From NCBI GenBank assembly GCA_944390195.1, contig CALXOZ010000002.1, positions 14,380 through 78,379 of the forward strand: DNA of 64,000 nucleotides, written 5' to 3'. The position numbers were made by a program, and so were the translations under genes. Numbering within the stretch: position 1 is the stretch's first letter; each line of letters begins with the position of its first letter. This document shows, in pieces, positions 6,503 through 61,334 of the stretch. This stretch comes from an uncultured Alphaproteobacteria bacterium (GTDB lineage: Bacteria; Pseudomonadota; Alphaproteobacteria; CAAGCB01; CAG-977). The notes beneath the pieces were generated by a model that searched no databases, had not been told where the DNA came from, and saw only the letters and a list, made by a program, of their open reading frames with translations.

Positions 6503-7780
6503 ATGTACGATATTAAATGGATTAGAGAAAACCCGGAGTTGTTTGATAAAGGTCTTGAACGCCGTGGAATGCCGCCCCGTTCGGCTGAAGTTTTGGAATT
6601 GGATAAGAAATATCGTTCGTCTCAGACTGATTTGCAGGAAATGCAGTCTCGTCGAAACGATCTGTCCCGTCAAGTCGCGGAAGTGAAAAAAGCCGGCGGT
6701 GATGCAGACGTTTTGATGCATGAAGTTGGTGCATTGAAACGCAGTATGGCGGATACGGAAGAAGATGTCCGGATTTTATATGAAAAGATTGATGCCATTT
6801 TGGAAACCTTGCCCAATTATCCGGCCGAAGACATTCCTGACGGTTTGGATGAAACGACAAACCGTGAAATTCGTCGTTGGGGGGAACCTCGCCAGTTTGA
6901 TTTCAAACCTTTGGAACATGACGAAATCGGCGCCAAATTGTCCATGATGGATTTTGATCAGGCCGCAAAAGTTTCAGGAGCTCGATTCGTTTATTTGATG
7001 GGCGATTTGGCAAGATTGGAAAGGGCTTTGGCTCAATATATGCTTGACTTGCATCGTGAAAAGCATGGTTATCTTGAAATGGAAGTTCCTTTGATGGTCA
7101 ACAGCGGTGCTGTCTATGGGACGGCTCAATTGCCGAAATTTGCTCAGGACTTGTATCATACGACCGATGATTATTGGTTGATTCCAACAGCAGAAGTCAG
7201 TCTGACGAACTTTGTCGCGGGTAAAGTGGTTGACGAAGCCGTTTTACCGATGCGTTTAACGGCATTGACGCCTTGTTTCCGTTCTGAAGCCGGTGCTGCG
7301 GGAAAAGATACGCGTGGTATGATCCGTCAGCATCAATTTTACAAAGTTGAAATGGTTTCGATTACCACACCGGAACAGTCTTGGGACGAACATGAACACA
7401 TGACCAGTTGCGCCGAAGATGTGTTGAAAGGATTAAACCTGCCATATCGTGTTGTTTGTTTGTCTGCCGGAGATATGGGATTTTCCGCATGTAAAACCCA
7501 CGATCTGGAAGTGTGGATGCCGGGGCAAAACAAGTATCGTGAAATTTCAAGCGTTTCCAATTGCTGGGATTTCCAAGCAAGGCGCATGGATGCTCGTTGT
7601 AAAAACAAAGCCCAAAAAGGAACACGTTTCGTTCATACGTTAAACGGTTCTGGGGTCGCTGTCGGACGTGCTATGATTGCCGTGATGGAAAATTATCAAC
7701 AAGCCGATGGCAGTGTGCTCATTCCCGAAGCCTTGCAAAAATACATGGGTGGGCAAACAGTTATAACCGCTGGAAAATAA
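6503..7780 (+). CDS. serS: serine--tRNA ligase
   Basis: N-terminal coiled-coil arm plus a class II core with motifs 2/3 (…FRSEAG…, …[16 protein letters not shown]…). ATG at 6503 is preceded by AGGAG. Confidence 0.93.
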
Positions 7781-13590: not shown

Positions 13591-13603
13591 ATGAAAATTC
13601 ACT

Positions 13604-13788
13604 AATTCTAAAAAATATTGTGTATTTTGGGGTATCTCGATAACCTATAATAGATCTGTCTCAATCAATCGCTTCTTTTCGTTGAAAGGAAAACATTCCG
13701 CTTAATAATGTCAAGCCAGCTTGCCTTTCTATTGTGATAAAACCGAACCGATCTGTGTATAAACTCGTTTAAATTCCTTCCACAGCTT
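13604..13788. repeat. composite repeat copy 1 (unit A 106 bp directly abutting unit B 76 bp)
   Basis: A (aattctaaaaaatattgtgtattttggggtatctcgataacctataatagatctgtc…ccgcttaataat) is identical to 14568-14673. B (aagccagcttgcctttctattgtgataaaaccgaaccgatctgtgtataaactcgtttaaattccttccacagctt) is about 97% identical to 14826-14901. Confidence 0.9.
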
Positions 13789-14567
13789 TCAGATTTATTG
13801 TATATTCCCGCTTGAGGGGCGAAGGACATTTTTTTGATTCAAGTGTTTTCAGATTTATAAGTATATGAAATTCCGGTTGAGAAAGCGGTTTTCCATTTTT
13901 TTAAAGATAATGAAAATTAAACTTTCTTTGTTTTGATGCTTATAAAAAACTATTAATCTGCCAGTTTTTTTGAAATTCTTTTATTGTGAAAGCCTGTCAT
14001 ATGCCAAAATAAAAAATTTAAATTGAAATGCTGTAAACTTGGTTTATGACTTTTAGTGCTTCAGATCCTGAGGACTGAAATTCTTACAGGATATTGGTAT
14101 TAAATCACTATTTGAAATATTTTTGATTCTATATCCCTATATCAAAATCACATGGATATAACATGATAATAAAATATTTCACACAATAAATTGTATGTAA
14201 AAAATTTTAAAGACAATTTGTTTGAATGAAGCTTTATTCAAAAATATAAATCTTTTTAAGAAAGTTATTAATAAAAGAAAACATTCCTTATAAAACGTTA
14301 GTTTCTGTTTTGTGTATAACTTCCCATATTGCCATCTAGACTTGAATAGCGTTTTATTTGGCTGGATGCGTAATTTGTTACTTATAACCGTAAACAGAAA
14401 AATGTCTGATGTAGTATGTTATTCCCAACTGTTTTATATATATAAGGTATCTGGCGATGATTTATGTTTTTGTCTGCCGTATCTTTAAATACCATTGCTT
14501 TAAAACCGTTTATTGCGATATTTAAAATTCATGTTCTATTCATAGATCATCAAACTTATATTTCAGA

Positions 14568-14901
14568 AATTCTAAAAAATATTGTGTATTTTGGGGTATC
14601 TCGATAACCTATAATAGATCTGTCTCAATCAATCGCTTCTTTTCGTTGAAAGGAAAACATTCCGCTTAATAATCAACTTTAGTATGTCGTTATTTGCATC
14701 GCTGAATTTGATCGCAAGCTTTTTCCATAAAAGCGTTCTAAGACAGCGCCGACGTTCTTCTTGCAAAGACGGCGATGTATTTGGACGATCTGTCTTGAGT
14801 CTTCCATGAAAAGGTTAAGCCCGCTTGCCTTTCTATTGTGATAAAACCGAACCGATCTGTGTATAAACTCGTTTAAATTCCTTCCACAGCTTCCAGAAAG
14901 C
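14568..14901. repeat. composite repeat copy 2 (unit A and unit B split by a 152-bp unique insert)
   Basis: Same A and B units as 13604-13788, with 14674-14825 inserted between them. Both copies lie inside a 2.3-kb gene-free AT-rich block. Confidence 0.9.
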
Positions 14902-15554: not shown

Positions 15555-15665
15555 GTGCGTAATTGCGAATGCGTTTAGCAACGATTTTTACGATTTTCAA
15601 TGATGTTTCCGTTAATAAAATTGCACGTTCGATATATCAGCTAAATGTCCTAAGCAGTAGGAATC
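15555..15665 (-). pseudogene. decayed fragment of the GGDEF-domain gene (paralogous to 20534-20645)
   Basis: About 110 bp alignable to the intact gene at 20534-20645 in the same orientation. Minus-strand translation gives RDS-YCLGHLADISNVQF* versus parent RDSDYLGRLADIEFAILL, with in-frame stops. Confidence 0.75.
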
Positions 15666-15693
15666 TCTTGACTATAAACTTGCCGGAATCACA

Positions 15694-15747
15694 TGCATAA
15701 AGAAGTCATGAATTTTTAATAAAAACGTATCATCTATAAATTTCCGA
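15694..15747. repeat. 54-bp perfect direct repeat C, copy 1 (flanks 15823-16521 gene)
   Basis: tgcataaagaagtcatgaatttttaataaaaacgtatcatctataaatttccga is identical to 16705-16758. Confidence 0.9.
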
Positions 15748-15822: not shown

Positions 15823-16521
15823 TTAACGTCCTTTTGCAGCATTCATTGCTGCTATGTTTATAGGATTTAAAGTTTTGTTGTTCTTTTTTTCTCTTTGATC
15901 AACCGTTTTAAAGGAGCTCGGTGTAACAATTAAAAGTTCCTCTTTGACAGATTTCGGATTTTGCTTATACATTTCATATTCCTGCGCTGAAAGAGGCATG
16001 GCAATATAATAAGTCAACTTAGTTCCCGCACGTTCAGGGAAATAACCGTTGCGTTTATCCATAGCTGAATGAACATTTTGATGAATATCTCTGTTAGGCG
16101 TATTCGGAAGGGGCATCATACAACGCCAATCATGGATTGATGATAACACTTCGTTTCCGAATTGAACGGGACCCTTTTTAAAAGAACCACTGATAGCGCG
16201 CGGAAACAAATGGTGATAATTATAACCATTCGGAGTTTTTCCGTTGGCGACAAATTCAAAAATCTGTTTATCTGTCATTCCTGCTTGACGTAAACGTGAT
16301 ATTCCTTCTTTATTTTCCGATCCGTCAGGATTATAAACAGTATCTTTGAGCAACTGCGCTCTAACCTGTTTATATTCTTCATAAACCTTTTTGTTTTCTT
16401 CCGGAGATATACGAATTCCTTTTACAGGAACCCATTTGAAAACGAACTCTGGGCTATTGATGTTGTTTTGAAAAGAGGGCTTTTTTCCTTTGCTTTTGCG
16501 TTTTGTATGTATATATGTCAT
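15823..16521 (-). CDS. hypothetical protein with HH-hydrophobic-P / N…H motif (possible HNH-fold, AHH-like nuclease)
   Basis: 232 aa with a basic N-terminus. 'NGYNYHHLFPR…GNEVLSSIHDW' resembles the [A/L/S]HH-hh-P…N…H arrangement of HNH-superfamily toxin nucleases. No other homology recognised. Flanked by repeat C. Confidence 0.45.
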   Translation of the reverse strand: MTYIHTKRKSKGKKPSFQNNINSPEFVFKWVPVKGIRISPEENKKVYEEYKQVRAQLLKDTVYNPDGSENKEGISRLRQAGMTDKQIFEFVANGKTPNGYNYHHLFPRAISGSFKKGPVQFGNEVLSSIHDWRCMMPLPNTPNRDIHQNVHSAMDKRNGYFPERAGTKLTYYIAMPLSAQEYEMYKQNPKSVKEELLIVTPSSFKTVDQREKKNNKTLNPINIAAMNAAKGR

Positions 16522-16704: not shown

Positions 16705-16758
16705 TGCATAAAGAAGTCATGAATTTTTAATAAAAACGTATCATCTATAAATTTCCGA
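16705..16758. repeat. 54-bp perfect direct repeat C, copy 2
   Basis: Identical to 15694-15747. Confidence 0.9.
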
Positions 16759-20347: not shown

Positions 20348-21487
20348 TTATGCCGGAGATTCTGCTACGGCAATATTGTTTTGTCGTTCTTTGGTTGAAC
20401 GCAAGGCATTAAAAGCGCGTAATAAAAGCGAATCGATTGTTTCATCCGTATCTGTTCGTGTCGCGATGCTTATACTTGTGGTAACGGTGATTTTTATATT
20501 TCCGACCATCAGATTTGATTTCATGACTTCATCGCGAATGCGCTCAGCAACGATTTTTGCGCCTTCCAATGGTGTTTCCGGTAATAAGATCGCAAATTCG
20601 ATATCGGCCAAACGTCCTAAGTAATCGGAATCCCTGATGGAATTTTGACAAGCTGTTACGGCGACTTTTATTGCTTCATCGCCGAATGCCGACCCGTGCT
20701 CGTTATTTAAAGCTTCGAAACGGTCAATGGTCATTAAAAGAACGGACAAGTTCCGTTTATAACGTCTTGCCCGTTTCATTTCTTTTGCTCCGTCTTCCAA
20801 GAACTGACGTCTGTTCAATACGCCGGTAACAGGATCGATTACAGTCATTTGACGTAATTCTTCTTCCAATTGTTTGCGCGGTGTTATATCGAACCCGACA
20901 GAACGGATTTCAGCCGGACGTCCATCGGGCCCGTAAATAATCCGGTTTGTCCATGAAATCCAAACTCTTCTGCCGTTTTTGCAAATATTTTCATTTTCAT
21001 TATCGACATACAGGCGCGGGTTGTTTTTAATGCGTTCAATCAAATTTGTTAAAGTTTGTCCGCGGGAATCTTTAGTTGGAACGATGGTACCGATAATATT
21101 TTTACCGATGAGTTCACTTTTATCGTTATAACCGTAAAATTCGCAGGCATAATCATTAACAGACAGGAGTATACCGTCTTTATCCATACAGATAAATAAA
21201 CTTTTCGTACCGGGGGAAGAGTATGGATCGAACTGGCGATGGCGTTCTTTTTTCATATCTTCCAATTCCTTTTGTACGGAAATTAAAGTATTTTGTAATT
21301 CAACGACTTTGTTTTTCAAGGCAATTTTTTTTGTTCTGCAAGATAAAAAGCGATAAAACAAATATATCAATGCAAAACTTAACACGAAACACAAAACAAC
21401 GGGCAATGATATAAACCCTGATGACTGAGATATTTTTCCTTCGGGCAGAAGAATTGTTTGAAAGTTGAAATAGGCTGAAAACGGCAT
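20348..21487 (-). CDS. membrane-anchored PAS–GGDEF-domain protein with degenerate active site (ADIEF instead of GG[DE]EF)
   Basis: 379 aa. N-terminal TM, PAS-like region, and a GGDEF fold recognisable by 'IDRFEALNNEHGSAFGDEAIK' and 'RYKRNLSVLLMTIDRF'. The signature reads 'GRLADIEFAILLPE'. Confidence 0.75.
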   Translation of the reverse strand: MPFSAYFNFQTILLPEGKISQSSGFISLPVVLCFVLSFALIYLFYRFLSCRTKKIALKNKVVELQNTLISVQKELEDMKKERHRQFDPYSSPGTKSLFICMDKDGILLSVNDYACEFYGYNDKSELIGKNIIGTIVPTKDSRGQTLTNLIERIKNNPRLYVDNENENICKNGRRVWISWTNRIIYGPDGRPAEIRSVGFDITPRKQLEEELRQMTVIDPVTGVLNRRQFLEDGAKEMKRARRYKRNLSVLLMTIDRFEALNNEHGSAFGDEAIKVAVTACQNSIRDSDYLGRLADIEFAILLPETPLEGAKIVAERIRDEVMKSNLMVGNIKITVTTSISIATRTDTDETIDSLLLRAFNALRSTKERQNNIAVAESPA

Positions 21488-28539: not shown

Positions 28540-29637
<1,098 letters not shown>

Positions 29638-29820
29638 TTATACACCATTCTGGATGAATATTTTCTAGAAACAGAATAGTCGTGAGAGGTAAGCAATTTA
29701 TTAATAATAGCCGGTTTATTGAAATTATTTTTAAAAAAGTTCTTGTTTTCTTTATACTTTTTTAACTAATTCCCGTTTTTGTATTTTATTTAAATAATTT
29801 TTTCTTTAAAAAAGTGTATG

Positions 29821-29835
29821 TTAAAGGCTTATTAA
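29821..29835. promoter_or_regulatory. TTAA-N7-TTAA (CtrA-box-like) about 200 bp upstream of ccrM
   Basis: ttaaaggcttattaa. CtrA is the known regulator of ccrM in alphaproteobacteria. In AT-rich DNA such a match can arise by chance. Confidence 0.25.
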
Positions 29836-29877
29836 ATTTTTTCAATAGCTTATTTGTGAATAAAAGGTTAACAATCA

Positions 29878-29887
29878 GGGGGGGGGG
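29878..29887. repeat. G10 homopolymeric tract
   Basis: 10 consecutive G in an AT-rich intergenic region upstream of ccrM. It is the only long G/C run noticed. Confidence 0.9.
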
Positions 29888-29929
29888 TATGGACGGTAGG
29901 AACGGTTTGTTTTACATCATACCCTAATG

Positions 29930-30222
29930 ACGTTTAGCGCTTTCTTGCACTTCTTTGATGGTTTCCGTACGTCTTACAAAATTTTAACAAGATCGAAACC
30001 GCTTCCGATGATTAGTTATGCGAATTTGTTGCAAGCTTTCCAACAACATTTAATCGTGAAAACGCTTTGTGTCGGATTATCCTGTTTTGTGCGATACGGC
30101 TCAAAGTCCGGACGTTTTGTCCTAAATCTGTAAAGCGGTTACCCCGTATTACGCAAGATGTGTCGCAATCGTTTAGGAAGCTATGGATAAGTACACTAAA
30201 ATCACCGCTCGTCGATATCATT
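29930..30222 (+). pseudogene. decayed internal fragment of the pyruvate:ferredoxin oxidoreductase gene (paralogous to nifJ 33520-33812)
   Basis: About 290 bp collinear with nifJ. Translation gives FLHFFDGFRTSYKILTRSKP… versus parent FLHFFDGFRTSHEINKIETVSDDQLREFVEG…; other segments match nearly base for base (gatcgaaacc, gaaaacgctttg). Contains indels and a stop. Confidence 0.85.
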
Positions 30223-30399
30223 GTTTAAAAATTGATAATTCTTTTATTTGTCCGGTTAAAAGAACGGAGGGATTTGTTTTTTTGAAAATTTTAGGTATAT
30301 GCCAAAATTCCCACCTTTGGTAAAAGGGTTTTGATAAAGCTGTTTTTATCGTTCAAACGAACATGAAAAAATCTTTAAGATAAAAAGTGAAACGTAGCA

Positions 30400-31017
30400 T
30401 CATTTTAGATAAGCTTTGATGGGAGCATAGGATTTTCTATGATGAATGCAAACTCCGTGTTCTTTCAACCCTTTTTGATGCAATTTGGTTCCGTATCCGG
30501 CGTTTTTTTCCCATCCGTAATAAGGAAAATCCTTTGCCAAACAGCTCATGATGTTGTCTCTGGTTACTTTCGCTATGATAGAGGCCGCAGCAATTGATAA
30601 GCTTAAGGCGTCTCCTTTGACGATTGCCCGAGCCGGACAGGGGAGGAGCGGTGGAACTTTGTTGCCGTCAACCAATGCGAATGAGGGCACGCAGGGCAGG
30701 TTTTCGACAGCTCGCCGCATAGCTAAAAAAGTTGCCTGTAAAATGTTTAAACGGTCTATTTCTTCAACGCTAGCGATACCGCAACCGATCAAGGCGGAAC
30801 AGGAATGTAAACTTTCAAACAGTTCTTCGCGTTTGTGACGGGAAAGTTTTTTTGAATCATCTAAAGCCTGTGATAAAAAAACGGGTATTTCCAGATCCGG
30901 AAAAACCACCGCTGCGGCGACGACGGGACCCGCCCAAGGTCCACGACCGGCTTCGTCAATGCCGGCGATTAAAGAGTGGATATTTATTATTGAGGCTTCA
31001 TATTTGAAATCAGGCAT
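30400..31017 (-). CDS. rnhB: ribonuclease HII
   Basis: 205 aa. 'IAGIDEAGRGPWAGPVVAAAVV' catalytic N-terminus. Confidence 0.9.
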   Translation of the reverse strand: MPDFKYEASIINIHSLIAGIDEAGRGPWAGPVVAAAVVFPDLEIPVFLSQALDDSKKLSRHKREELFESLHSCSALIGCGIASVEEIDRLNILQATFLAMRRAVENLPCVPSFALVDGNKVPPLLPCPARAIVKGDALSLSIAAASIIAKVTRDNIMSCLAKDFPYYGWEKNAGYGTKLHQKGLKEHGVCIHHRKSYAPIKAYLK

Positions 31018-31024
31018 GGTTTTA

Positions 31025-32431
31025 TTATTGATCCGTTTTTTTGTTTTTTAATAAATCTTTATAAAATGCCGAATTTTTCAGCATTTCTTTTTTCATATGC
31101 TGTATACCGTATTTTTCAATCAAAGTCTGTTCTTGAGACAACAATGACCTTCCCAACCCAAATCCTTTTTCCGGCAAAGGGAAACCGGCGGCTTCCAATA
31201 AAGTGGGAGTCAAATCCAGCATGGAAAACGATCTGTTTGCGGACAAGGGGGTGGGGATATTGATAAAGCGGTTGAAAATCAATCGGTGACGATTTTTTTC
31301 CAATGTTTCATATAAAGGGTTTTGGCGTGCCAGATGGTCTCCGACAACGGCAATGACGGTGTCATGAAACAAAGGTGTTTTTTTTATAAAATCAATGAAA
31401 TCGGAAATTTGTCGATCCGTACAAAAAACGATCCGTGCAAATTCATTAAAGGTGTTATTAGCGGTTTGACAGTTTTTTTCCAAATATCCGACAGGTTCAT
31501 GGGTATTAATTGTCAAAATTCCCATAAAAAAAGGCGATTTTTTTTGTGATAATTCTAAAATTTTTTCTTTTGCGACTTCGAAAGTTTTAGAATCTTTAAC
31601 GGCGGAAAAATCGGTTAAACCGTTATCATCTTCATTTCTGCGTAAGGTTGTCGCTCCGATGACATTTTTTATTCCGTGTTCTTTTAAGAGATTGACTTTA
31701 TTTGAAAAGTGTTCGGTTTCGCTGAAATAAAAATAAGTGTCGTATCCTGCTTTGTTTAAAACGTCGGTTAAACAGAGGGCGGAAGGGAAGGTGAATTTGA
31801 TATGATTTCTGGAAAATTCCGGCAAGACGGGCATGACGGGAATGGCGCAAAGGGCGGCGGTCAATGCTGATATCGTGTTGTCTGTGCCGTCTGTTTGCAG
31901 AAACTCTGAAAAAGACAGCCCGGCTTGTTTTGTTAATTCCGGTAATAACGAATTCGGGAACAAATCAGGATTTGCGTAAGATTGTTCAAGGGATTCCGCA
32001 AAGATCAGGATCAGGTTTTTTTTCCGTTCCGGAAGATTGTCATTTTTTAAAGAATAAAAAATGTAGTTATCTTCGTAAAAAGAGGTTTTTTGAAAAAAGA
32101 TAATGAATAAATCCTGTATACCAATTCTGAAAAAAGACAAATAAATAAAAAATATTCCCGAGAATGTCATTAATATGTTTCTGACAAGTTTTTTTGAAAC
32201 ATGGAGTTGCTTTAAAAGGGCGGGGATCAAACACCACGAGCTCGTAACAATGAAAAGCGTCATTAAGAGTGTTTGAATAAAATATTTTTTTTCAATATTC
32301 AGGAAACTTTTAAAAAAATCACCGTACATCACCAGATAACTGAAAACAGTTGTCGGTTTTGCCGCCAGAAAGTCAAGAAATGACAGGACAACAACCGAGA
32401 GGCACAGCAGGGTGAAGATAAAAAGTTTCAT
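31025..32431 (-). CDS. sulfatase-family (alkaline-phosphatase superfamily) membrane protein, LTA-synthase/phosphoglycerol- or phosphoethanolamine-transferase-like
   Basis: 468 aa. About 5 N-terminal TMs, then a periplasmic domain with 'ILTINTHEP', 'VVGDH', 'DLTPTLLEAAG' motifs. Confidence 0.55.
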   Translation of the reverse strand: MKLFIFTLLCLSVVVLSFLDFLAAKPTTVFSYLVMYGDFFKSFLNIEKKYFIQTLLMTLFIVTSSWCLIPALLKQLHVSKKLVRNILMTFSGIFFIYLSFFRIGIQDLFIIFFQKTSFYEDNYIFYSLKNDNLPERKKNLILIFAESLEQSYANPDLFPNSLLPELTKQAGLSFSEFLQTDGTDNTISALTAALCAIPVMPVLPEFSRNHIKFTFPSALCLTDVLNKAGYDTYFYFSETEHFSNKVNLLKEHGIKNVIGATTLRRNEDDNGLTDFSAVKDSKTFEVAKEKILELSQKKSPFFMGILTINTHEPVGYLEKNCQTANNTFNEFARIVFCTDRQISDFIDFIKKTPLFHDTVIAVVGDHLARQNPLYETLEKNRHRLIFNRFINIPTPLSANRSFSMLDLTPTLLEAAGFPLPEKGFGLGRSLLSQEQTLIEKYGIQHMKKEMLKNSAFYKDLLKNKKTDQ

Positions 32432-32859: not shown

Positions 32860-33020
32860 GGCTGAAGAAAAAACGTAAAAAGAGGTTGAAGAAACAATTC
32901 AACTGCGTTAAAGTTAAGCCCGCAAATCGGGGGAGTTTTTCTTGACGTCTGATTTGCCGATGTCGGGAAAACATTCCCTTCTATTTAAATCTTTCATTTT
33001 ATTTCTTGGAGAAAAAATCC

Positions 33021-36578
<3,558 letters not shown>

Positions 36579-51079: not shown

Positions 51080-51821
51080 ATGGTTTGATAATGCTATTAT
51101 CATCAGTGTTAAGAAATTCGGGGAACAAGACGGTATCATTTCTTTTTTGACAGGAAATCATGGTCGGTATGTCGGGCTATGTAAAGGGGCTTTTTCAAAA
51201 AGACTGGTTGGAACCGTCCAGCTTGGGAACTTGGTACAAATAAAATGGAATGCGCGTTTGGAAGAACATTTGGGCAAGGTGAAAGTCGAATTGGAAAGTG
51301 CTTATGCCTCACGTTTTTTTTCAGATTCCGGACGTTTACTGACATTATCCTGTTTATGCGGGATGTGCTCTTTATTGCCGGAACGCGAGAATGTAACAGA
51401 TTTTTTTGAAAAGACATTACAACAAATTATTTTGTTGGAAACCGAAAATTTTCAGGAACGTTACGCTAGATGGGAAGTGGAGTTGTTAAAAACATTAGGT
51501 TTCGGATTGGACTTATCTTCCTGCGCTTTGACAGGGACAACAGAGGATTTGGTTTACGTTTCTCCAAGAACAGGGCGGGCAGTATGTCGTTCGGCGGGGT
51601 TGGCTTGGAAAGATAGATTATTACCTTTACCCACGTTCCTGAAAGCTGATAATCTGGCTGCAAGTAATACTCTGGAAGTAAAAAAAGCTTTAGATTTAAC
51701 AGGATTTTTCCTTGAAAATCATGTTTCAAAAACGCTAGACTGCTCTATTCCGGCAGTCAGACGACGATTGGTTTATTATTTACAAACGAACAGACTTGTT
51801 TCAGGTGTTGAAAATGAATGA
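51072..51821 (+). CDS. recO: DNA repair protein RecO
   Basis: N-terminal OB fold (…IISVKKFGEQDGIISFLTGNHGRYVGL…) and C-terminal Cys cluster. Overlaps the era stop. Confidence 0.85.
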   Translation: MPEWFDNAIIISVKKFGEQDGIISFLTGNHGRYVGLCKGAFSKRLVGTVQLGNLVQIKWNARLEEHLGKVKVELESAYASRFFSDSGRLLTLSCLCGMCSLLPERENVTDFFEKTLQQIILLETENFQERYARWEVELLKTLGFGLDLSSCALTGTTEDLVYVSPRTGRAVCRSAGLAWKDRLLPLPTFLKADNLAASNTLEVKKALDLTGFFLENHVSKTLDCSIPAVRRRLVYYLQTNRLVSGVENE

Positions 51822-54030
51822 AAGTGAACAAATAAAAGAGACAAAAATGGCGGAAGCTTTGGCTGAACGCTATCTTGCTTATGCGATGTCAACAATTGTC
51901 TCCCGTTCATTGCCGGACGTGCGCGATGGGTTGAAACCAGTTCATCGCCGGTTGTTATATGCCATGAACGCACTGCATTTAGATCCTGAATCCGGATTTA
52001 AAAAATGTGCGCGTGTCGTCGGAGACGTTATTGGTAAATACCATCCTCACGGAGATACCGCCGTTTATGAAACAATGGTTCGTTTGGCTCAAGATTTCGC
52101 CGTTCGCTATCCTTTGGTTGAAGGACAAGGAAATTTCGGCAATATTGACGGAGACAGTGCCGCAGCCATGCGTTATACGGAAGCGCGCTTGACCGAAGTT
52201 GCCAAAGCTATTATGGACGGATTGAATGACGGTACGGTTGATTTCCGTCCGACGTATTCGGGGGAAGATATAGAACCTGTGATCATGCCATGCGCTTTTC
52301 CTAATTTGTTGGCGAACGGGTCGGCTGGAATTGCTGTCGGTATGGCAACGAATATAGCTCCGCATAATGTCGGAGAGCTTGCCGACGGATTGCAGTTGTT
52401 GATAAAAAAGCCGGATTGCAGTGTTGACGATTTGATGAAATTCATTCATGGACCGGATTTCCCGACGGGAGGGGAAATTGTTGAGCCATATGAAACTTTG
52501 TTGAAAATATACCAAACCGGACGCGGGGCAATGCGTGTCAGAGCAAAATGGGAAAAAGACGAACTGTCCCACGGTATGTATCAGATTATTGTTACCGAAA
52601 TTCCTTATATGGTGAAAAAATCGGAATTGATCAGTAAGACGGCTAAATTGTTATTAGAAAAAAAACTACCCTTTTTGGCCGATATCCGAGATGAATCCGC
52701 TGAAAACGTCCGTATTGTTTTGGAACCCAAAAACCGTAATATCGAACCTGAACAATTAATGGCTCATCTGTTCCGTTTGACCGATATGCAAGTCAATTTC
52801 AGTATGAATATGAATGTATTGGATAAAGACGGTGTACCGCGTGTAATGAATTTAAAACAGATTTTGCAGGCTTTTCTCGATCATCGACAAGAAGTCCTGA
52901 TCCGGCGTTCCAAGTTCCGGTTGGATAAGATCAATCATCGCATGGAAGTTTTGGAAGGATTTTTAATCGCCTTTTTAAATCTGGACGAAGTCATTCGTAT
53001 TATTCGTGAAGAAGATGATCCGAAAACGTCTTTGATGAAAGCGTTTCATTTGACGGAAGTCCAAACGGAGGCGATTCTGAATATGCGTTTACGATCCTTG
53101 CGCAAACTTGAAGAATTTCAAATCAAGTCCGAACATGAAGAATTGGCTGCCGAAAAAGAAAAATTAGAAGCTTTATTGAATAATGAAATGTTGAGATGGA
53201 AAGAAATTTCATCAGAAATTTCTTTAATGAAAAAAAAGTTCGGGCAGGGGACAAAACTCGGGAAACGGCGCACGGTCATATCTGGAGCTCCAGAGGAAAT
53301 TGAAATTCCTTTGGAAGCATTAATCGAACGTGAACCAATTACAGTTATTTTATCTGAAAAAGGGTGGATCAGGTCTGTAAAAGGACACATTCAATTAGAT
53401 GACGATATCAAATTCAAAGAAGGCGATCGGTTACAATGCGGCCTTCAAGCTCAAACGACGGATAAGATTTTAATGTTTGCAACAAACGGTCGATGTTATA
53501 CTTTGTCTGCCGATAAATTGCCTCGGGGCAGAGGGTTTGGAGAACCTGTCAGATTGTCGATAGATTTGCCAGAAGAAGATGAAATCATTTCTATGACGAT
53601 TTTTCACTCTGGAGAAAAAAGGCTAGTTCTTTCCAAAAAAGGGAAAGGATTTATTATTAAAGAAGACGATTTACTTGCGCAAACGAGAAACGGCAAGATC
53701 GTTTTAAATTTGATGCCGCAAGACAAAGCCTATCTTAACTTACCGGTAAAAGGGGATACTGTCGCCGTTATCGGAGACAATCGAAAGTTATTGATTTTTG
53801 ACTTGTCCGAAATTCCGGAAATGACACGAGGGCAAGGGGTGTTCGTTCAAAAATATCCTAAAGGTGTTGGTTTGTCAGACATAAAGTTGTTTAATAAAGC
53901 TGATGGATTAGCCTATCCTTGTGGTGGGGGGACAAGAATAGAAACAAACTTGCTGGGGTGGATCGGACATCGCGCTCAAATAGGAAAATTGCCACCTGTG
54001 GGCTTTCCTAAAAGCAATAAGTTTTCATAA
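51814..54030 (+). CDS. parC: DNA topoisomerase IV subunit A
   Basis: GyrA/ParC N-terminal breakage-reunion domain (…[28 protein letters not shown]…). C-terminal beta-pinwheel lacking the GyrA box, hence ParC. The paralog gyrA (58545-61334) carries QRRGGKG. Confidence 0.88.
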   Translation: MNESEQIKETKMAEALAERYLAYAMSTIVSRSLPDVRDGLKPVHRRLLYAMNALHLDPESGFKKCARVVGDVIGKYHPHGDTAVYETMVRLAQDFAVRYPLVEGQGNFGNIDGDSAAAMRYTEARLTEVAKAIMDGLNDGTVDFRPTYSGEDIEPVIMPCAFPNLLANGSAGIAVGMATNIAPHNVGELADGLQLLIKKPDCSVDDLMKFIHGPDFPTGGEIVEPYETLLKIYQTGRGAMRVRAKWEKDELSHGMYQIIVTEIPYMVKKSELISKTAKLLLEKKLPFLADIRDESAENVRIVLEPKNRNIEPEQLMAHLFRLTDMQVNFSMNMNVLDKDGVPRVMNLKQILQAFLDHRQEVLIRRSKFRLDKINHRMEVLEGFLIAFLNLDEVIRIIREEDDPKTSLMKAFHLTEVQTEAILNMRLRSLRKLEEFQIKSEHEELAAEKEKLEALLNNEMLRWKEISSEISLMKKKFGQGTKLGKRRTVISGAPEEIEIPLEALIEREPITVILSEKGWIRSVKGHIQLDDDIKFKEGDRLQCGLQAQTTDKILMFATNGRCYTLSADKLPRGRGFGEPVRLSIDLPEEDEIISMTIFHSGEKRLVLSKKGKGFIIKEDDLLAQTRNGKIVLNLMPQDKAYLNLPVKGDTVAVIGDNRKLLIFDLSEIPEMTRGQGVFVQKYPKGVGLSDIKLFNKADGLAYPCGGGTRIETNLLGWIGHRAQIGKLPPVGFPKSNKFS

Positions 54031-54799: not shown

Positions 54800-54950
54800 C
54801 ACAAAAAACGACCATAACGGACTTCAATACGCCTTGCATAAGGAATTTATTTGAACATTGATGACAAAACGAAGTTCAATGCGACATTTGACGAATTGAT
54901 AGCTACAAATACCAAGTTCCAATTGAAAAACGTCAGTGTTCTTATCTAAA
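54800..54950 (+). pseudogene. decayed inverted fragment of the ADP-forming acetyl-CoA synthetase gene
   Basis: Translation ALHKEF/GIYLNIDDKTKFNATFDELIATNTKFQLKNVSVLI* versus parent ALHKTEMKGIYLNIDDEAKFNAAFDELTATIAKFQLKNASVLIQ (parent encoded on minus at about 55980-56110). The fragment is on the plus strand and has an indel and a stop. Confidence 0.85.
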
Positions 54951-55625: not shown

Positions 55626-57707
55626 TTATTTTAATAACATTTTAAAATCGACGACGACAGCACGGTCTTTTGTTACCAGAACTGGATTTCCGTCAATGGA
55701 TTTTATTTCCGGAATTTCCAGAACCAATTGTTGAACCTTCTTTAACGTTTCAGCCAAAGGTCCGACCGCTTTAGGTTCTTCTCCTCTAACACCATTCAAA
55801 ATCGTTCCGATTTTTGTTTCTTTGATCATTGCGTCAAAATCATCAGCAGGAAGAATACGCATTGTCGTATCCCGCATGACTTCCGTATAGATGCCGCCCG
55901 TTCCAAAGATCATGACACGACCGAAATTTTTATCAGAATTAACACCGATAATCGTTTCAGAAGCCTTGACGATCATTTCTTGGATAAGGACACTGGCGTT
56001 TTTCAATTGGAACTTGGCAATTGTCGCCGTCAATTCATCAAACGCCGCATTGAACTTCGCTTCGTCATCGATGTTCAAATAAATTCCCTTCATTTCCGTT
56101 TTATGCAAAGCGTCAGGAGCGGAAAGCTTCAACACGACAGGAGAGGGGAAAAGCTTTTTACAAAATGCCAATGCTTCATTTTTATCCGTAAAGTTACCGC
56201 ATTTCGGATAGTCGATTCCGTAATGATCCATGATTTTGTTCATTGTTGTTTGCGGTAAGGAAGCTAAACCGTCATTTACGGCTTTTTTAATTTCCTCTTT
56301 AATTTCGGACGGGACGTCATGACATTCGACTTTTACATCAGGCATTCCTCTGAACGCCATTTGGGCTTTCATCAAACCGAGCAAGCGGATACAATCTGTC
56401 GGATAATCATATGCAAGGATATTTTGAGCTTTTAACATATTAACAGCTTCTCTAACGCGTTCTCCGCCGATAAAGGAGCAGAAAATGTTAATATCTTTAA
56501 ATTGAGGAGCCAGTTTGATAATAGCTTCAGCCGTTTCTTTGGGTTCTGTCGACATTTGAGGCGTCAATAGAACGATGATGTTTTTATATTCACCAGATTC
56601 GCATAAAACGCGCAAAGCGTTTTCATAACGATCCGCTTTTGCGTCTCCGACGACATCAATCGGGTTTCCGACGGAAGCTTCCGGCGTTAAAACGGCGCGT
56701 AATTTTTCGATTGTTTTTTCACTTGGGCGAGCCAAATCCAGATGAGCATCTTCGCATAAATCAGAAGACAAAACACCGACGCCACCTGCATTTGTCAATA
56801 TTCCAACAGAACCGGAAAAATCGGTATGGTTGACATGTTGCAACAATTCCAAAGCTCCGAACAATTCGCGAGTTGTATAAACTTGAATGGCGCCGCTACG
56901 TTGCAAAGCAATTTCCAAAACGCGGTAATTGGGAGCCAGAGACCCTGTATGTGACAAGCTGGCCGCTTGAGCTTTGCTGGATTTTCCGGGTTCCATGATA
57001 ACACATGGTTTCGTTTTGCTGACTTCTTTCAAGATACGCAAGAACTCTTGCCCTTTTTTCAGTCCTTCCAGATAGAAAACGAAAGCTTTTGTGTTCGGAT
57101 CGTGTTGAATGGCTTCCAACAAAGAAGCTTCGTTCAAATCCGCTTTATTCCCGATGGAGATGAAATGAGAAAATCCGATTCCCTTTTCTTCAGCCCAGTC
57201 GAGAATGGCGCTGCAATAGGCTCCCGACTGTGAAATGAAAGCGACATTTCCTTGTAAGGGGAAACAGGGAGCAAAACTTGCATTTAATTTATCGAAAGTG
57301 GAAATATGTCCCAAGCAGTTCGGACCCAACAAATTAATATTGTTATCCAAACATTTTTTTGCGATTTTCAATTCCAGTTCTTTATTTCCAGCTTCTCCGA
57401 ACCCTGCAGTGATGATACTGATATTTTTAGCTTTGTTAACAATTGCATCATCGACGGCGGCTTCGCAAAAACGAGCGGGAACCAATAAGACGACAAGGTC
57501 TACGGGATTGGGAATATCGCGTACGGAAGCAAAACATTTTTTACCTTTGAGTTCTTGTCCGGCCAACTTCGGATTGACACCGTAAAGATCTCCTTGGAAA
57601 CCGGCTTCAATCAGATTTTTAAAAACAACGGCTCCCAATTTTGATTCGTCAGCGGAAACACCGACAACCGCAATGGAATGCGGATTGAAAAATGTACTTA
57701 AAGACAT
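55626..57707 (-). CDS. acetate--CoA ligase (ADP-forming), fused alpha-beta subunits (Acd / NDP-forming acyl-CoA synthetase)
   Basis: About 694 aa. N-terminal CoA-binding 'IAVVGVSADESKLG', succinyl-CoA-synthetase-like flavodoxin and ligase-CoA domains, and a C-terminal ATP-grasp part. Start chosen at the second ATG after AAGGGA. Confidence 0.88.
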   Translation of the reverse strand: MSLSTFFNPHSIAVVGVSADESKLGAVVFKNLIEAGFQGDLYGVNPKLAGQELKGKKCFASVRDIPNPVDLVVLLVPARFCEAAVDDAIVNKAKNISIITAGFGEAGNKELELKIAKKCLDNNINLLGPNCLGHISTFDKLNASFAPCFPLQGNVAFISQSGAYCSAILDWAEEKGIGFSHFISIGNKADLNEASLLEAIQHDPNTKAFVFYLEGLKKGQEFLRILKEVSKTKPCVIMEPGKSSKAQAASLSHTGSLAPNYRVLEIALQRSGAIQVYTTRELFGALELLQHVNHTDFSGSVGILTNAGGVGVLSSDLCEDAHLDLARPSEKTIEKLRAVLTPEASVGNPIDVVGDAKADRYENALRVLCESGEYKNIIVLLTPQMSTEPKETAEAIIKLAPQFKDINIFCSFIGGERVREAVNMLKAQNILAYDYPTDCIRLLGLMKAQMAFRGMPDVKVECHDVPSEIKEEIKKAVNDGLASLPQTTMNKIMDHYGIDYPKCGNFTDKNEALAFCKKLFPSPVVLKLSAPDALHKTEMKGIYLNIDDEAKFNAAFDELTATIAKFQLKNASVLIQEMIVKASETIIGVNSDKNFGRVMIFGTGGIYTEVMRDTTMRILPADDFDAMIKETKIGTILNGVRGEEPKAVGPLAETLKKVQQLVLEIPEIKSIDGNPVLVTKDRAVVVDFKMLLK

Positions 57708-58028
57708 CATTTTCCCTTTCAAAAACTTTAAGTGTAACTGGGTTGTAATATGAAATGGTTATACACGAAAAGTCAAGGTAATTTTGAGCTTTTTCATAAT
57801 ATGAAACAATAAAAAATTCAGATGTTTTTTTTGGCGTATGGACAAATGGAAAATGCTCAGAGGAACATAACCATTTAAATAATGAAAAAAGTGAAAAATG
57901 ATAAATAACTAATTGATTTTTATAAAAATTGATTTAAAAAACGCTTTTAAAAAAAGAAAAGCTTTTTTTTCCGTCTTTTTCGGTGTAAAAAGAGGATACT
58001 ATTGTTATTGATAATGTGAGATATGGAA

Positions 58029-58544: not shown

Positions 58545-61334
58545 GTGGAAAATACTGTAAAAGATTCTTCGGTCGTTGTTGTCGGTATCGAAGAAGAAAT
58601 GAAGCGTTCTTACTTGGATTACGCGATGAGCGTGATCGTTTCGCGTGCCTTACCTGATGTTCGTGACGGATTAAAGCCGGTACACCGCCGTATTTTATAT
58701 TCCATGCACGAAAACGGATACGACTACAATAAACCGTTCCGCAAGTCAGCGCGTATCGTCGGAGATGTCATGGGGAAATATCACCCTCATGGTGATGCCG
58801 CAATCTATGATGCCATGGTTCGTATGGCTCAAAGCTTTTCCATGAGCCTGCCATTGATCTCTTCTCAAGGTAATTTCGGCTCCATTGACGGAGATCCTCC
58901 TGCGGCAATGCGTTATACCGAAGCCCGTCTGGCTTTATCCGCCCACAATTTATTGGATGATATTGATAAAGACACGGTTAATTTTTCCCCAAACTATGAT
59001 GAAACCGTTCTTGAACCGTCTGTTTTACCGGCTCGTTTCCCCAATATTTTAGTCAACGGAGCCGGTGGGATAGCTGTTGGTATGGCGACAAACATTCCCC
59101 CGCACAACTTGGGAGAAGTGATTGATGCCGCTATCGCTTGTGTTGATCACCCCGATATTTCCGATGAAGAATTGTTGCAGATTGTCCCTGGACCCGATTT
59201 TCCGACAGGCGGTATAATTCTTGGACGATCCGGATCCAGAGCTACAGAGCTGACAGGGCGCGGATCGATCATCATGCGCGGCAGAACGCATATTGAAGAA
59301 ATCCGTAAAGACCGCTGGGCAATCATTATAACAGAAATACCGTATCAAGTGAATAAATCCGCCATGATTTCCCGTATTGCGGAATTGGTGAGAGATAAAA
59401 CAATTGACGGTATTTCCGATATCCGTGATGAATCCGACCGTCAGGGAATACGCGTCGTTATTGAAATAAAGCGTGATTTTCATCCCGAGATCATTTTAAA
59501 CCAACTGTTCCGTTACACGTCTTTGCAGACAAGTTTCGGAGCCAATATGATTGCTTTGAATGCCGGACGACCGCAATTGATGAATTTGCGTGAAATGCTC
59601 GGAGCCTTCATTGCCTTTCGTGAAGAAGTCATCCGACGCAGAACGATTTACGAGTTGAACAAAGCGCGTGATCGGGCGCATTTATTGGTCGGTTTGGCAA
59701 TAGCTGTGGAAAACCTTGATTCCGTGATCGAATTGATTCGAAGCGCTCCGAACAGAAATGCCGCAAAAGAAAGTTTGATGAAACGTTCTTGGCCGGCTCA
59801 TCAAATCGTTCCGTTAATAGATCTGATCGACGATCCCGAATATGAAGCGGTTGACGGTGTTTGCAAACTGTCTGAAAAACAAGCGGATGGTATACTGGAC
59901 TTGCGTTTACACCGATTGACAGGTTTGGAACGTGAAAAAATCCATAATGAACTGCGCGAATTAGGCAGTATTATCAAAGAACTCTTATCTGTTCTGGCTT
60001 CGCGAGAAAAGTTATATGGTATCATGCGTGAGGAACTGGTTAAAGTGAAGGAAGAATTTTCCACACCGCGCCGGACAACGATAGAAGAAATTGAATTTGA
60101 ACATGATATCGAAGACCTCATTCAACGCGAAGATATGGTTGTAACCGTTACCAATACAGGGTATATCAAACGTGTTCCGTTGTCTTCATACCGTGCTCAA
60201 AGGCGTGGAGGAAAGGGACGTACGGGCATGAACACGCACGAAGAGGATTATATTACGAATTTGTTCGTTGCCAGTACGCATACACCTGTTTTGTTCTTTT
60301 CAAATGCCGGTTTGGTTTACAAAATGAAAGTTTACCGTTTACCGGTCGGCTCGCCGCAATCAACGGGCAAAGCTTTAATTAATTTGTTGCCCTTAAAGCA
60401 GGATGAGCGAATTACGACGATTATGCAGTTACCGGAAGACGAAAACGAATGCGATAATCTGGATGTCATGTTTGCAACGCGTTCTGGGAACGTACGGCGG
60501 AACAAACTATCCGATTTTGTCGATGTAAAAGCTAACGGTAAAATCGCAATGAAGTTGGATGAAGGCGATACGTTGATAGATGTGAAAATTTGTACGGACG
60601 ACCAAGATGTCTTGTTGGCGGCAAAAGGTGGAAAGTCGATCCGTTTCCCTGTTTCCGAAGTTCGTGTTTTTTCCGGAAGGACATCGACGGGAGTTCGCGG
60701 CATTCGGCTTGGAAAGGGCGACGAGGTTATTTCCATGTCTGTTTTGCGTCATACGGAAGCGGATATGGAAAAACGTTACGCTTATTTGAAGATGGCAAAA
60801 GCTTTGCGACGTTCGGACGAAAGTGAAGAAAATACAACGGACGACCCTGAAGCCGTATCATCGTTGACCTTATCCGAAGAAGAATTCCAAAAAATGCAGT
60901 CCGAAGAGGAATTTATTTTAACAGTAACGGACAGTGGCTATGGAAAAAGGACTTCGGCTTACGAATACCGCATTACGGGAAGAGGCGGTCAAGGGGTTAC
61001 CAATATAGATAACACGAAAAGAAAAGATAGTGTTGTCGCTTCGTTTCCCATAACAGATACAGCTCATGTCATGCTTGTAACGGATGCGGGCAAGTTAATC
61101 CGTATGCCTGTAAAAGATGTCCGTATTGCGGGCAGGAATACGATGGGGGTCATTATGTTCCGTTTGTCCGATGTTGAACATGTTGTGTCTGCGACATGTA
61201 TAGAAGATTATGAGGAGGAAACTCCGGAAGAGGAGGAAGAAGGATTAGAAGATGCCCTTCAAACGTTGCCGGAGAATGAATCGGAAGAGGCTCAAAAAAT
61301 GAATGAGAGTTCAAAGGAAAATCAGGATGACTGA
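58545..61334 (+). CDS. gyrA: DNA gyrase subunit A
   Basis: 929 aa. N-terminal domain with active-site region. GyrA box '[10 protein letters not shown]'. An acidic insertion in the CTD (…[34 protein letters not shown]…) and a long acidic C-terminal tail. Confidence 0.93.

Follow-up and report, generated by a model that had tools for sequence, protein, structure and literature searches.

Gene remnants in Rickettsia are reportedly the subject of classic work by Andersson and Andersson. Such remnants lie in the intergenic DNA of Rickettsia and of other reductively evolving bacteria (PMC2374718, PMC1779305), and the pseudogenes catalogued in prokaryotes include both duplicated (non-processed) copies and the products of failed transfers (PMC522871; for their dynamics see PMC2916853 and PMC6054270). 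The locus described here is an intergenic piece of nifJ (the gene for pyruvate:ferredoxin oxidoreductase, PFOR) in a 64-kb window, by which we mean the whole stretch of DNA that was analysed (64,000 nucleotides). It resembles the Rickettsia remnants in being a short, AT-enriched leftover with stops and indels, placed in an unusually long spacer of an alphaproteobacterial genome, apparently eroded by deletions and detectable only against an intact copy. The difference lies in the parent: in Rickettsia the remnant is as a rule all that a lost gene has left behind, recognised through the orthologue of another species, whereas here nifJ stands intact 3.6 kb away in the same genome, which argues that the relic comes from an extra copy and not from gene loss. 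With the duplicated pseudogenes of prokaryotes it shares the character of a disabled copy of a resident gene with a neutral, AT-biased spectrum of changes, but in comparison with typical annotated pseudogenes it is far more truncated and is one of three within 64 kb. With about 13% relic-specific divergence, it is also rather old for a class of sequence that bacteria are said to lose fast (PMC2916853, PMC6054270).

We consider it probable (at about 0.82) that the lineage once had an additional copy of its own nifJ and that this stretch is what is left of it, without function and in neutral decay. As a type of feature it is a fresh example of something already known, i.e. ordinary genomic debris that involves no new mechanism. 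The features on which the argument turns are the following:

28540..29625, minus strand: gene for a CcrM-like N6-adenine DNA methyltransferase, left neighbour of the relic spacer (Pfam N6_N4_Mtase and RAMA)
29784..30395, no strand assigned: species-specific insertion of ~610 bp that holds the relic (from the spacer alignment against L043)
29872..29895, plus strand: possible remnant of the nifJ upstream element (parent 32924-32949, AAATCGGGGGAGTTTTT..TTGACG), weak
29942..30221, plus strand: core relic, decayed nifJ codons 169-261 (end of PFOR domain I and linker to domain II)
30246..30266, plus strand: possible remnant of the last seven nifJ codons (parent 36553-36573, 17 of 21 bases), weak
30400..31017, minus strand: ribonuclease HII gene (rnhB), right neighbour of the relic spacer (Pfam RNase_HII)
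33021..36578, plus strand: intact nifJ, pyruvate:ferredoxin (flavodoxin) oxidoreductase, 1185 aa (TIGR02176 equivalog and Pfam domains)
33525..33803, plus strand: parent segment of the relic within nifJ (GC 0.48-0.49)

Self-BLAST of the window aligned 29942-30221 with 33525-33803, both on the plus strand, at 82.9% identity over 281 columns (3 of them gap columns; E 9.9e-77), and the MAFFT alignments of relic and nifJ agreed with this result. Under a sequence-only pair model both copies scored 277 bits, against 12 bits for the best unrelated match in 952 kb of related DNA, so that the objection of an identity no better than that of shuffled controls fails widely. The significance of the match was judged by BLAST and cmsearch statistics, and substitutions were counted by hand on printed alignments. 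The homology ends sharply on both sides, and the limits given in the original prediction (29930-30222 against about 33520-33812) lie within about 10 bases of the true ones. The placement upstream of nifJ also stands, the predicted distance of 3.3 kb being only approximate: homologous bases are offset by 3,583 bp, and 2,800 bp separate the end of the relic from the nifJ ATG (33021).

The relic comprises 93 of the 1185 nifJ codons (8% of the protein), without start codon context. It differs from its parent by 45 substitutions, one 2-base insertion and one 1-base deletion (hand count on the alignment), and carries three in-frame stops (CAG>TAG twice, CAG>TAA once). The match that had been noticed at the protein level (FLHFFDGFRTS…) is visible and is spread over three frames (FLHFFDGFRTS.., NKIETASDD*LCEFV..TTFNRENAL, DYPVL..AQSPDV and PYYA..AIV*EAMDKY.KIT). 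Thus identity, stops and frameshifting indels bear out the earlier description of a decayed, non-functional partial copy in the orientation of its parent. A functional PFOR (TIGR02176) was rejected as a reading of the relic, since the small part of the protein that is covered is interrupted. The product of 33021-36578 itself scores 1774 bits against the TIGR02176 equivalog (cutoff 911) and holds the Pfam domains POR_N, PFOR_II, POR, EKR, Fer4 and TPP_enzyme_C.

The way in which the relic has changed was compared with that of the working gene. Its 45 substitutions fall near evenly on codon positions 1/2/3 (13/12/20), and over the same 279 bases the functional nifJ of the window differs from that of L043, another species, at 1/2/13 sites (both hand counts); a spectrum as flat as that of the relic suggests that it was a working gene for little or no time. 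Read in the direction from nifJ to relic, 32 changes are GC>AT, 11 are AT>GC and 2 are G/C swaps, so that 23.5% of GC sites have changed vs 7.7% of AT sites. The implied equilibrium GC is near 25%, close to the 26% of the adjacent spacer, and the relic itself stands at 0.41. An AT bias is general in bacterial mutation, and the spectrum of the relic matches it (PMC2936535). Within the species, 4 of 280 relic sites are polymorphic (three of the four through CpG transitions), as are about 2% of the remaining spacer and 1 of 279 sites in the parent segment, a comparison of little power considering that the sample is small and nearly clonal. On these counts the changes look like those of unconstrained sequence, and an origin as the relic of a duplication, which the original prediction had proposed, fits the lack of codon-position bias, the 3:1 excess of GC-to-AT changes and the spacer-like polymorphism.

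Pseudogene-derived regulatory RNAs, acting as decoys or antisense, are best known from eukaryotes. The relic is like them in having long stretches that would pair with the parent mRNA or share its sequence, and in occupying a position that is potentially transcribed. Its neighbours lie on the other strand and rnhB is not followed by a terminator, so that transcription running on from rnhB could yield an RNA antisense to nifJ (83% complementary to the nifJ mRNA, with perfect runs of up to 17 nt) that would damp or titrate PFOR; alternatively, a plus-strand transcript might serve as a decoy. In its most developed form, this proposal would have a 280-nt read-through antisense pair with the nifJ mRNA and so tie PFOR output to the expression of a cell-cycle-type methylase operon, and a broader version would see in the three relics of the window a lineage-specific copy-and-paste process acting on highly expressed genes. 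Antisense transcription is made plausible by the orientation and by the lack of predicted terminators (terminator-like sites in the relic spacer: 0), and the relic is fixed in all conspecific contigs examined. Promoter-like hexamers also exceed those of shuffles (12 vs 3.6), but this is expected of AT-rich DNA and every match is weak (9/12). Moreover, the folding of the relic is no better than that of shuffles on either strand (z 0.22 on the plus and 0.14 on the minus strand), and Rfam gave no match to it, either at the gathering score or at E<=1. Excess conservation was not found: the relic is 17% diverged from nifJ through unconstrained, AT-biased substitutions with unbiased codon positions, has acquired stops and indels, is as polymorphic as the neighbouring spacer and is absent from the nearest other species examined. 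It thereby differs from pseudogene-derived regulatory RNAs, which it does not seem to match in above-neutral conservation, structure or defined transcription signals. The RNA-level element or decoy that the original prediction had allowed for gains no support from these results, we hold any such role to be very improbable, and the relic appears to be without present function.

The relic is real and fixed in the sampled population. It recurs, with the same stops and indels and at about 99% identity, on six further contigs (L161, L162, L163, L166, L168 and L169) that extend far enough, were read by alignment and stem from six samples and two sources (ENA and Logan), and for a seventh contig (L167) the gene table shows the same gap of 776 bp. 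The conspecific contigs (from the samples behind L161-L171) were obtained by exact-protein look-up with the RNase HII of the window, which occurs identically on conspecific contigs, and with two variant proteins of its 90% cluster. When metagenomes were scanned with RNase HII for contigs of the species, distant relatives only (identity 60% or less) were recovered, and exact-protein look-ups of the nifJ and methylase products of the window returned no record. An assembly artefact, in which nifJ-like reads of a co-occurring strain had been joined into the spacer as a chimera, could be imagined, considering that the window is probably metagenome-derived, that a suspicious G10 run lies nearby and that nifJ is mosaic relative to L001 (another of the related species). 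However, the same junctions and the same 45 substitutions on six further contigs show that the relic is no such artefact, and a chimera would bring an intact-looking allele, not stops, indels and AT-biased decay; we give this explanation hardly any credence.

Two irregularities were seen among the conspecific sequences. The G10 run (29878-29887) is present in the window and in L162, while five other conspecific contigs read GGGGTGTTTTTT at this place; the run of ten may reflect variation between strains, or an artefact of sequencing or assembly. In L169 the sequence diverges left of the relic flank (7195-7311 of the contig, from ~29803 in the window) and ends after 117 bases that have no match in the window, a departure that would fit a structural variant as well as a chimeric end of the contig. 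The nifJ of the same contig is split into two ORFs of 951 and 228 aa.

The setting of the relic corresponds to what had been predicted, i.e. a gene-free, AT-rich stretch: it sits in a 775-bp spacer without genes (29626-30399), bounded on the left by the CcrM-like gene (best NCBIfam match CcrM, at 581 bits and so below the cutoff of 830) and on the right by rnhB, whose stop codon abuts the spacer. Past rnhB follow a sulfatase-family gene, a small TM2-domain gene and nifJ. The two nearest species that share this gene order, L043 and L040, have 164 bp and 93 bp, respectively, between the ccrM-like gene and rnhB, and in L001 this spacer is filled by a second sulfatase-family gene. The homology of the window to the L043 spacer ends at 29783, which leaves ~610 extra bases before the end of rnhB. 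The relic is absent at this spacer in L001, L043 and L040, the nearest other species examined. A weak extra match in L008 (16488-16714, E 0.047) was discarded, as it lies inside an unrelated ORF and aligns poorly. The original prediction had also asked whether relatives carry another intact PFOR at this site; neither such a gene nor a second, relic copy of nifJ was found in 49 related loci of other species (0/49), within the stored flanks of up to 10 kb on each side of nifJ.

Sulfatase-family (phosphoglycerol-transferase-like) genes are gained and lost often around rnhB (L001 6007-7377; window 31025-32431). One of them lies between rnhB and nifJ in both the window and L001, the second occurs in L001 only, and L043 and L040 have none. 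That the spacer of the window might be the remnant of the L001 sulfatase-family gene was rejected after BLASTP of all three minus-strand frames against that protein (best E 2.7). At the other end of the spacer, the 85 bases upstream of the CcrM-like gene (29626-29710) are strongly kept in four species, unlike the remaining spacer, and may represent a regulatory leader of that gene.

The recognisable nifJ core makes up 280 of the ~610 inserted bases, and the other 330 (29784-29941 and 30222-30395) are AT-rich and have no match or further copy elsewhere in the window or in the 165 fetched loci besides the conspecific contigs. An insertion of this size, rather than one of 280 bp, indicates that the event brought or left more than the recognisable piece. 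Two short scraps within it resemble the flanks of nifJ. On the right, 25 bases beyond the core, 30246-30266 matches the last seven nifJ codons; it was the best spacer match of a profile built from the nifJ flanks of four species (R3), with strand and order as expected (E 0.018 in a 0.8-kb search), and MAFFT independently placed it at the nifJ 3' end. On the left, the resemblance shows better in the form that is commoner among the conspecific contigs (CAATCAGGGGTGTTTTTTTATGGACG), where CAATCAGGGGTGTTTTT, ~50 bases left of the core, agrees with the upstream element AAATCGGGGGAGTTTTT (32924-32940) at 14 of 17 positions (L161). For this match 0.09 chance occurrences are expected per 4-kb locus, the R3 profile gives E 0.069 in a 0.8-kb search, and MAFFT places it likewise. 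Both are about 81-82% identical to their parents, similar to the core, and are collinear with it on the same strand; they are short (17 and 21 bases) and marginal, their E values are roughly calibrated, and they were chosen after being noticed. Taken together, the two collinear scraps tip the balance slightly towards a longer original insert, which may have comprised the entire gene from the upstream element to the 3' end and would later have been cut by large internal deletions.

A serious alternative is that only ~280 bp of nifJ were ever copied, as a patch that was dead on arrival, for instance by template switching or by break repair using nifJ 3.6 kb away as an ectopic template; the result would be equally non-functional. 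Both ends of the homology are sharp, the flat codon-position spectrum leaves no period as a working gene, the other two relics of the window are also short (107-108 bp, one of them inverted), and none of the conspecific contigs holds a longer intermediate form, all of which would suit a short patch. The length of the insertion speaks against it, as do the collinear scraps of the nifJ upstream element and 3' end on either side of the core, so that we regard a patch of this kind as possible, at odds well short of even. As to the route by which an extra copy would have arrived, a simple tandem duplication is unsupported, since the repeated spacer sequence expected at its junction is missing beside the relic (only 15-19-base matches between the right flank and the left spacer were seen, at 79-80% identity). 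Convincing flanking repeats, as hallmarks of a mobile element (MITE, IS or cassette), were not found either.

The likely source of the copy can be read from relic-only model scores, which were 200-201.5 bits for the nifJ alleles of the window and L001, 192 for L043, 165 for L040, and lower for more distant species. They point to the lineage's own nifJ allele group as the source. A distant foreign donor allele was rejected, as the resident and L001 alleles come first in this ranking. About 7-8 of the 45 relic differences match states of the L001, L043 or L040 alleles, which suggests that some of the divergence arose on the nifJ side, and about 37 changes (13%) are specific to the relic.

The most interesting by-product of the analysis is a similarity of nifJ between species far above that of its neighbours. 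The nifJ protein of the window is 99% identical to its counterparts in L001 and L043 (two other species), and the gene is 100% identical at the DNA level to that of L001 (10001-13561) over about 400 bp (roughly 33300-33720), with 93-95% on either side. Its neighbours are far more diverged between species (rnhB 78% at the protein level; the ccrM-like gene 91-92% at the protein and about 80% at the DNA level), and nifJ has a GC content of 0.50 inside a window of 0.40. The closest nifJ loci come from metagenome-assembled genomes of human and animal guts, labelled Alphaproteobacteria or Rhodospirillaceae. Considering that nifJ is much more alike between species than the genes around it, it looks to have been recently swapped between species by recombination.

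Such an exchange opens another path to the relic, by which a nifJ fragment from a related species would have lodged illegitimately in the spacer as debris of a horizontal transfer that either failed or was additive. A major share of the pseudogenes of prokaryotes is known to go back to failed transfers (PMC522871), and the relic states that agree with L001, L043 or L040 rather than with the resident allele could be counted in its favour, beside the apparent exchange of nifJ itself. The same states are, however, equally explained by later changes in the resident nifJ; with the resident and L001 alleles jointly nearest to the relic a foreign donor is unneeded, and the other two relics of the window each stem from a neighbouring gene, which speaks for copying over short distances. 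We therefore think a foreign origin unlikely and retain the reading of the relic as a decayed extra copy of the lineage's own gene.

That this is one of three such cases in the window, as the original prediction had it, was upheld; 15562-15668 and 54842-54949 are likewise relics of nearby genes:

15562-15668, same orientation as its parent (20531-20635): second relic, 107 bp at 79% identity
54842-54949, inverted relative to its parent (55980-56087): third relic, 108 bp at 87% identity

The second lies in a gene-free stretch, 5 kb from an internal part of the PAS-GGDEF diguanylate cyclase gene (20348-21487) from which it derives, and its differences are GC-to-AT biased (17 vs 5). The third lies in a 1-kb gene-free stretch about 1 kb from an ADP-forming acetyl-CoA synthetase-like gene (55626-57722), and has a 13-bp deletion and GC-to-AT biased changes. 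Of the three relics in the window, two have core fermentation genes as their parents (PFOR and the ADP-forming acetyl-CoA synthetase-like gene). To judge from these three, partial copies evidently arise locally in this lineage and are slow to be removed.

Other repeats were recorded in the same window. Near-identical direct repeats (95-98%) occur at 13598-13793 and 14562-14897, within a gene-free stretch of 2.3 kb. A perfect 54-bp direct repeat (15694-15747 and 16705-16758) flanks an ORF of 232 aa (15823-16521) that has no Pfam match, and the pair could mark a mobile or recently duplicated unit. Furthermore, 52009-52187 matches 58749-58927 over 179 bp at 72% identity; both segments lie in long ORFs (51796-54030 and 58545-61334), and are probably parts of paralogous genes rather than a parent and its relic.

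In the scenario that we favour, an extra copy of nifJ would have landed between rnhB and the ccrM-like gene after the species had split from its nearest sampled relatives. Freed from coding constraint, the copy would then have gathered stop codons and small indels along with point mutations biased towards AT. Two big deletions may have left the ~0.3 kb core and two tiny flanking scraps. What remains would be drifting toward the roughly 26% GC of the surrounding spacer, and its persistence may be attributed to slow deletion in a lineage that carries several such relics.

As a neutral relic, the sequence has its value mainly as a marker and a yardstick. It reads out the mutational spectrum of a gut alphaproteobacterium that is uncultured (GC-to-AT changes in excess by about 3:1, and an equilibrium GC near 25%) and shows a lineage that tolerates old junk DNA. 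For annotators it carries the warning that long AT-rich spacers here contain gene debris and not unknown genes. Three relics in 64 kb suggest frequent local partial duplications combined with slow deletion, i.e. a genome style that would be closer to that of Rickettsia than to that of typical free-living bacteria.
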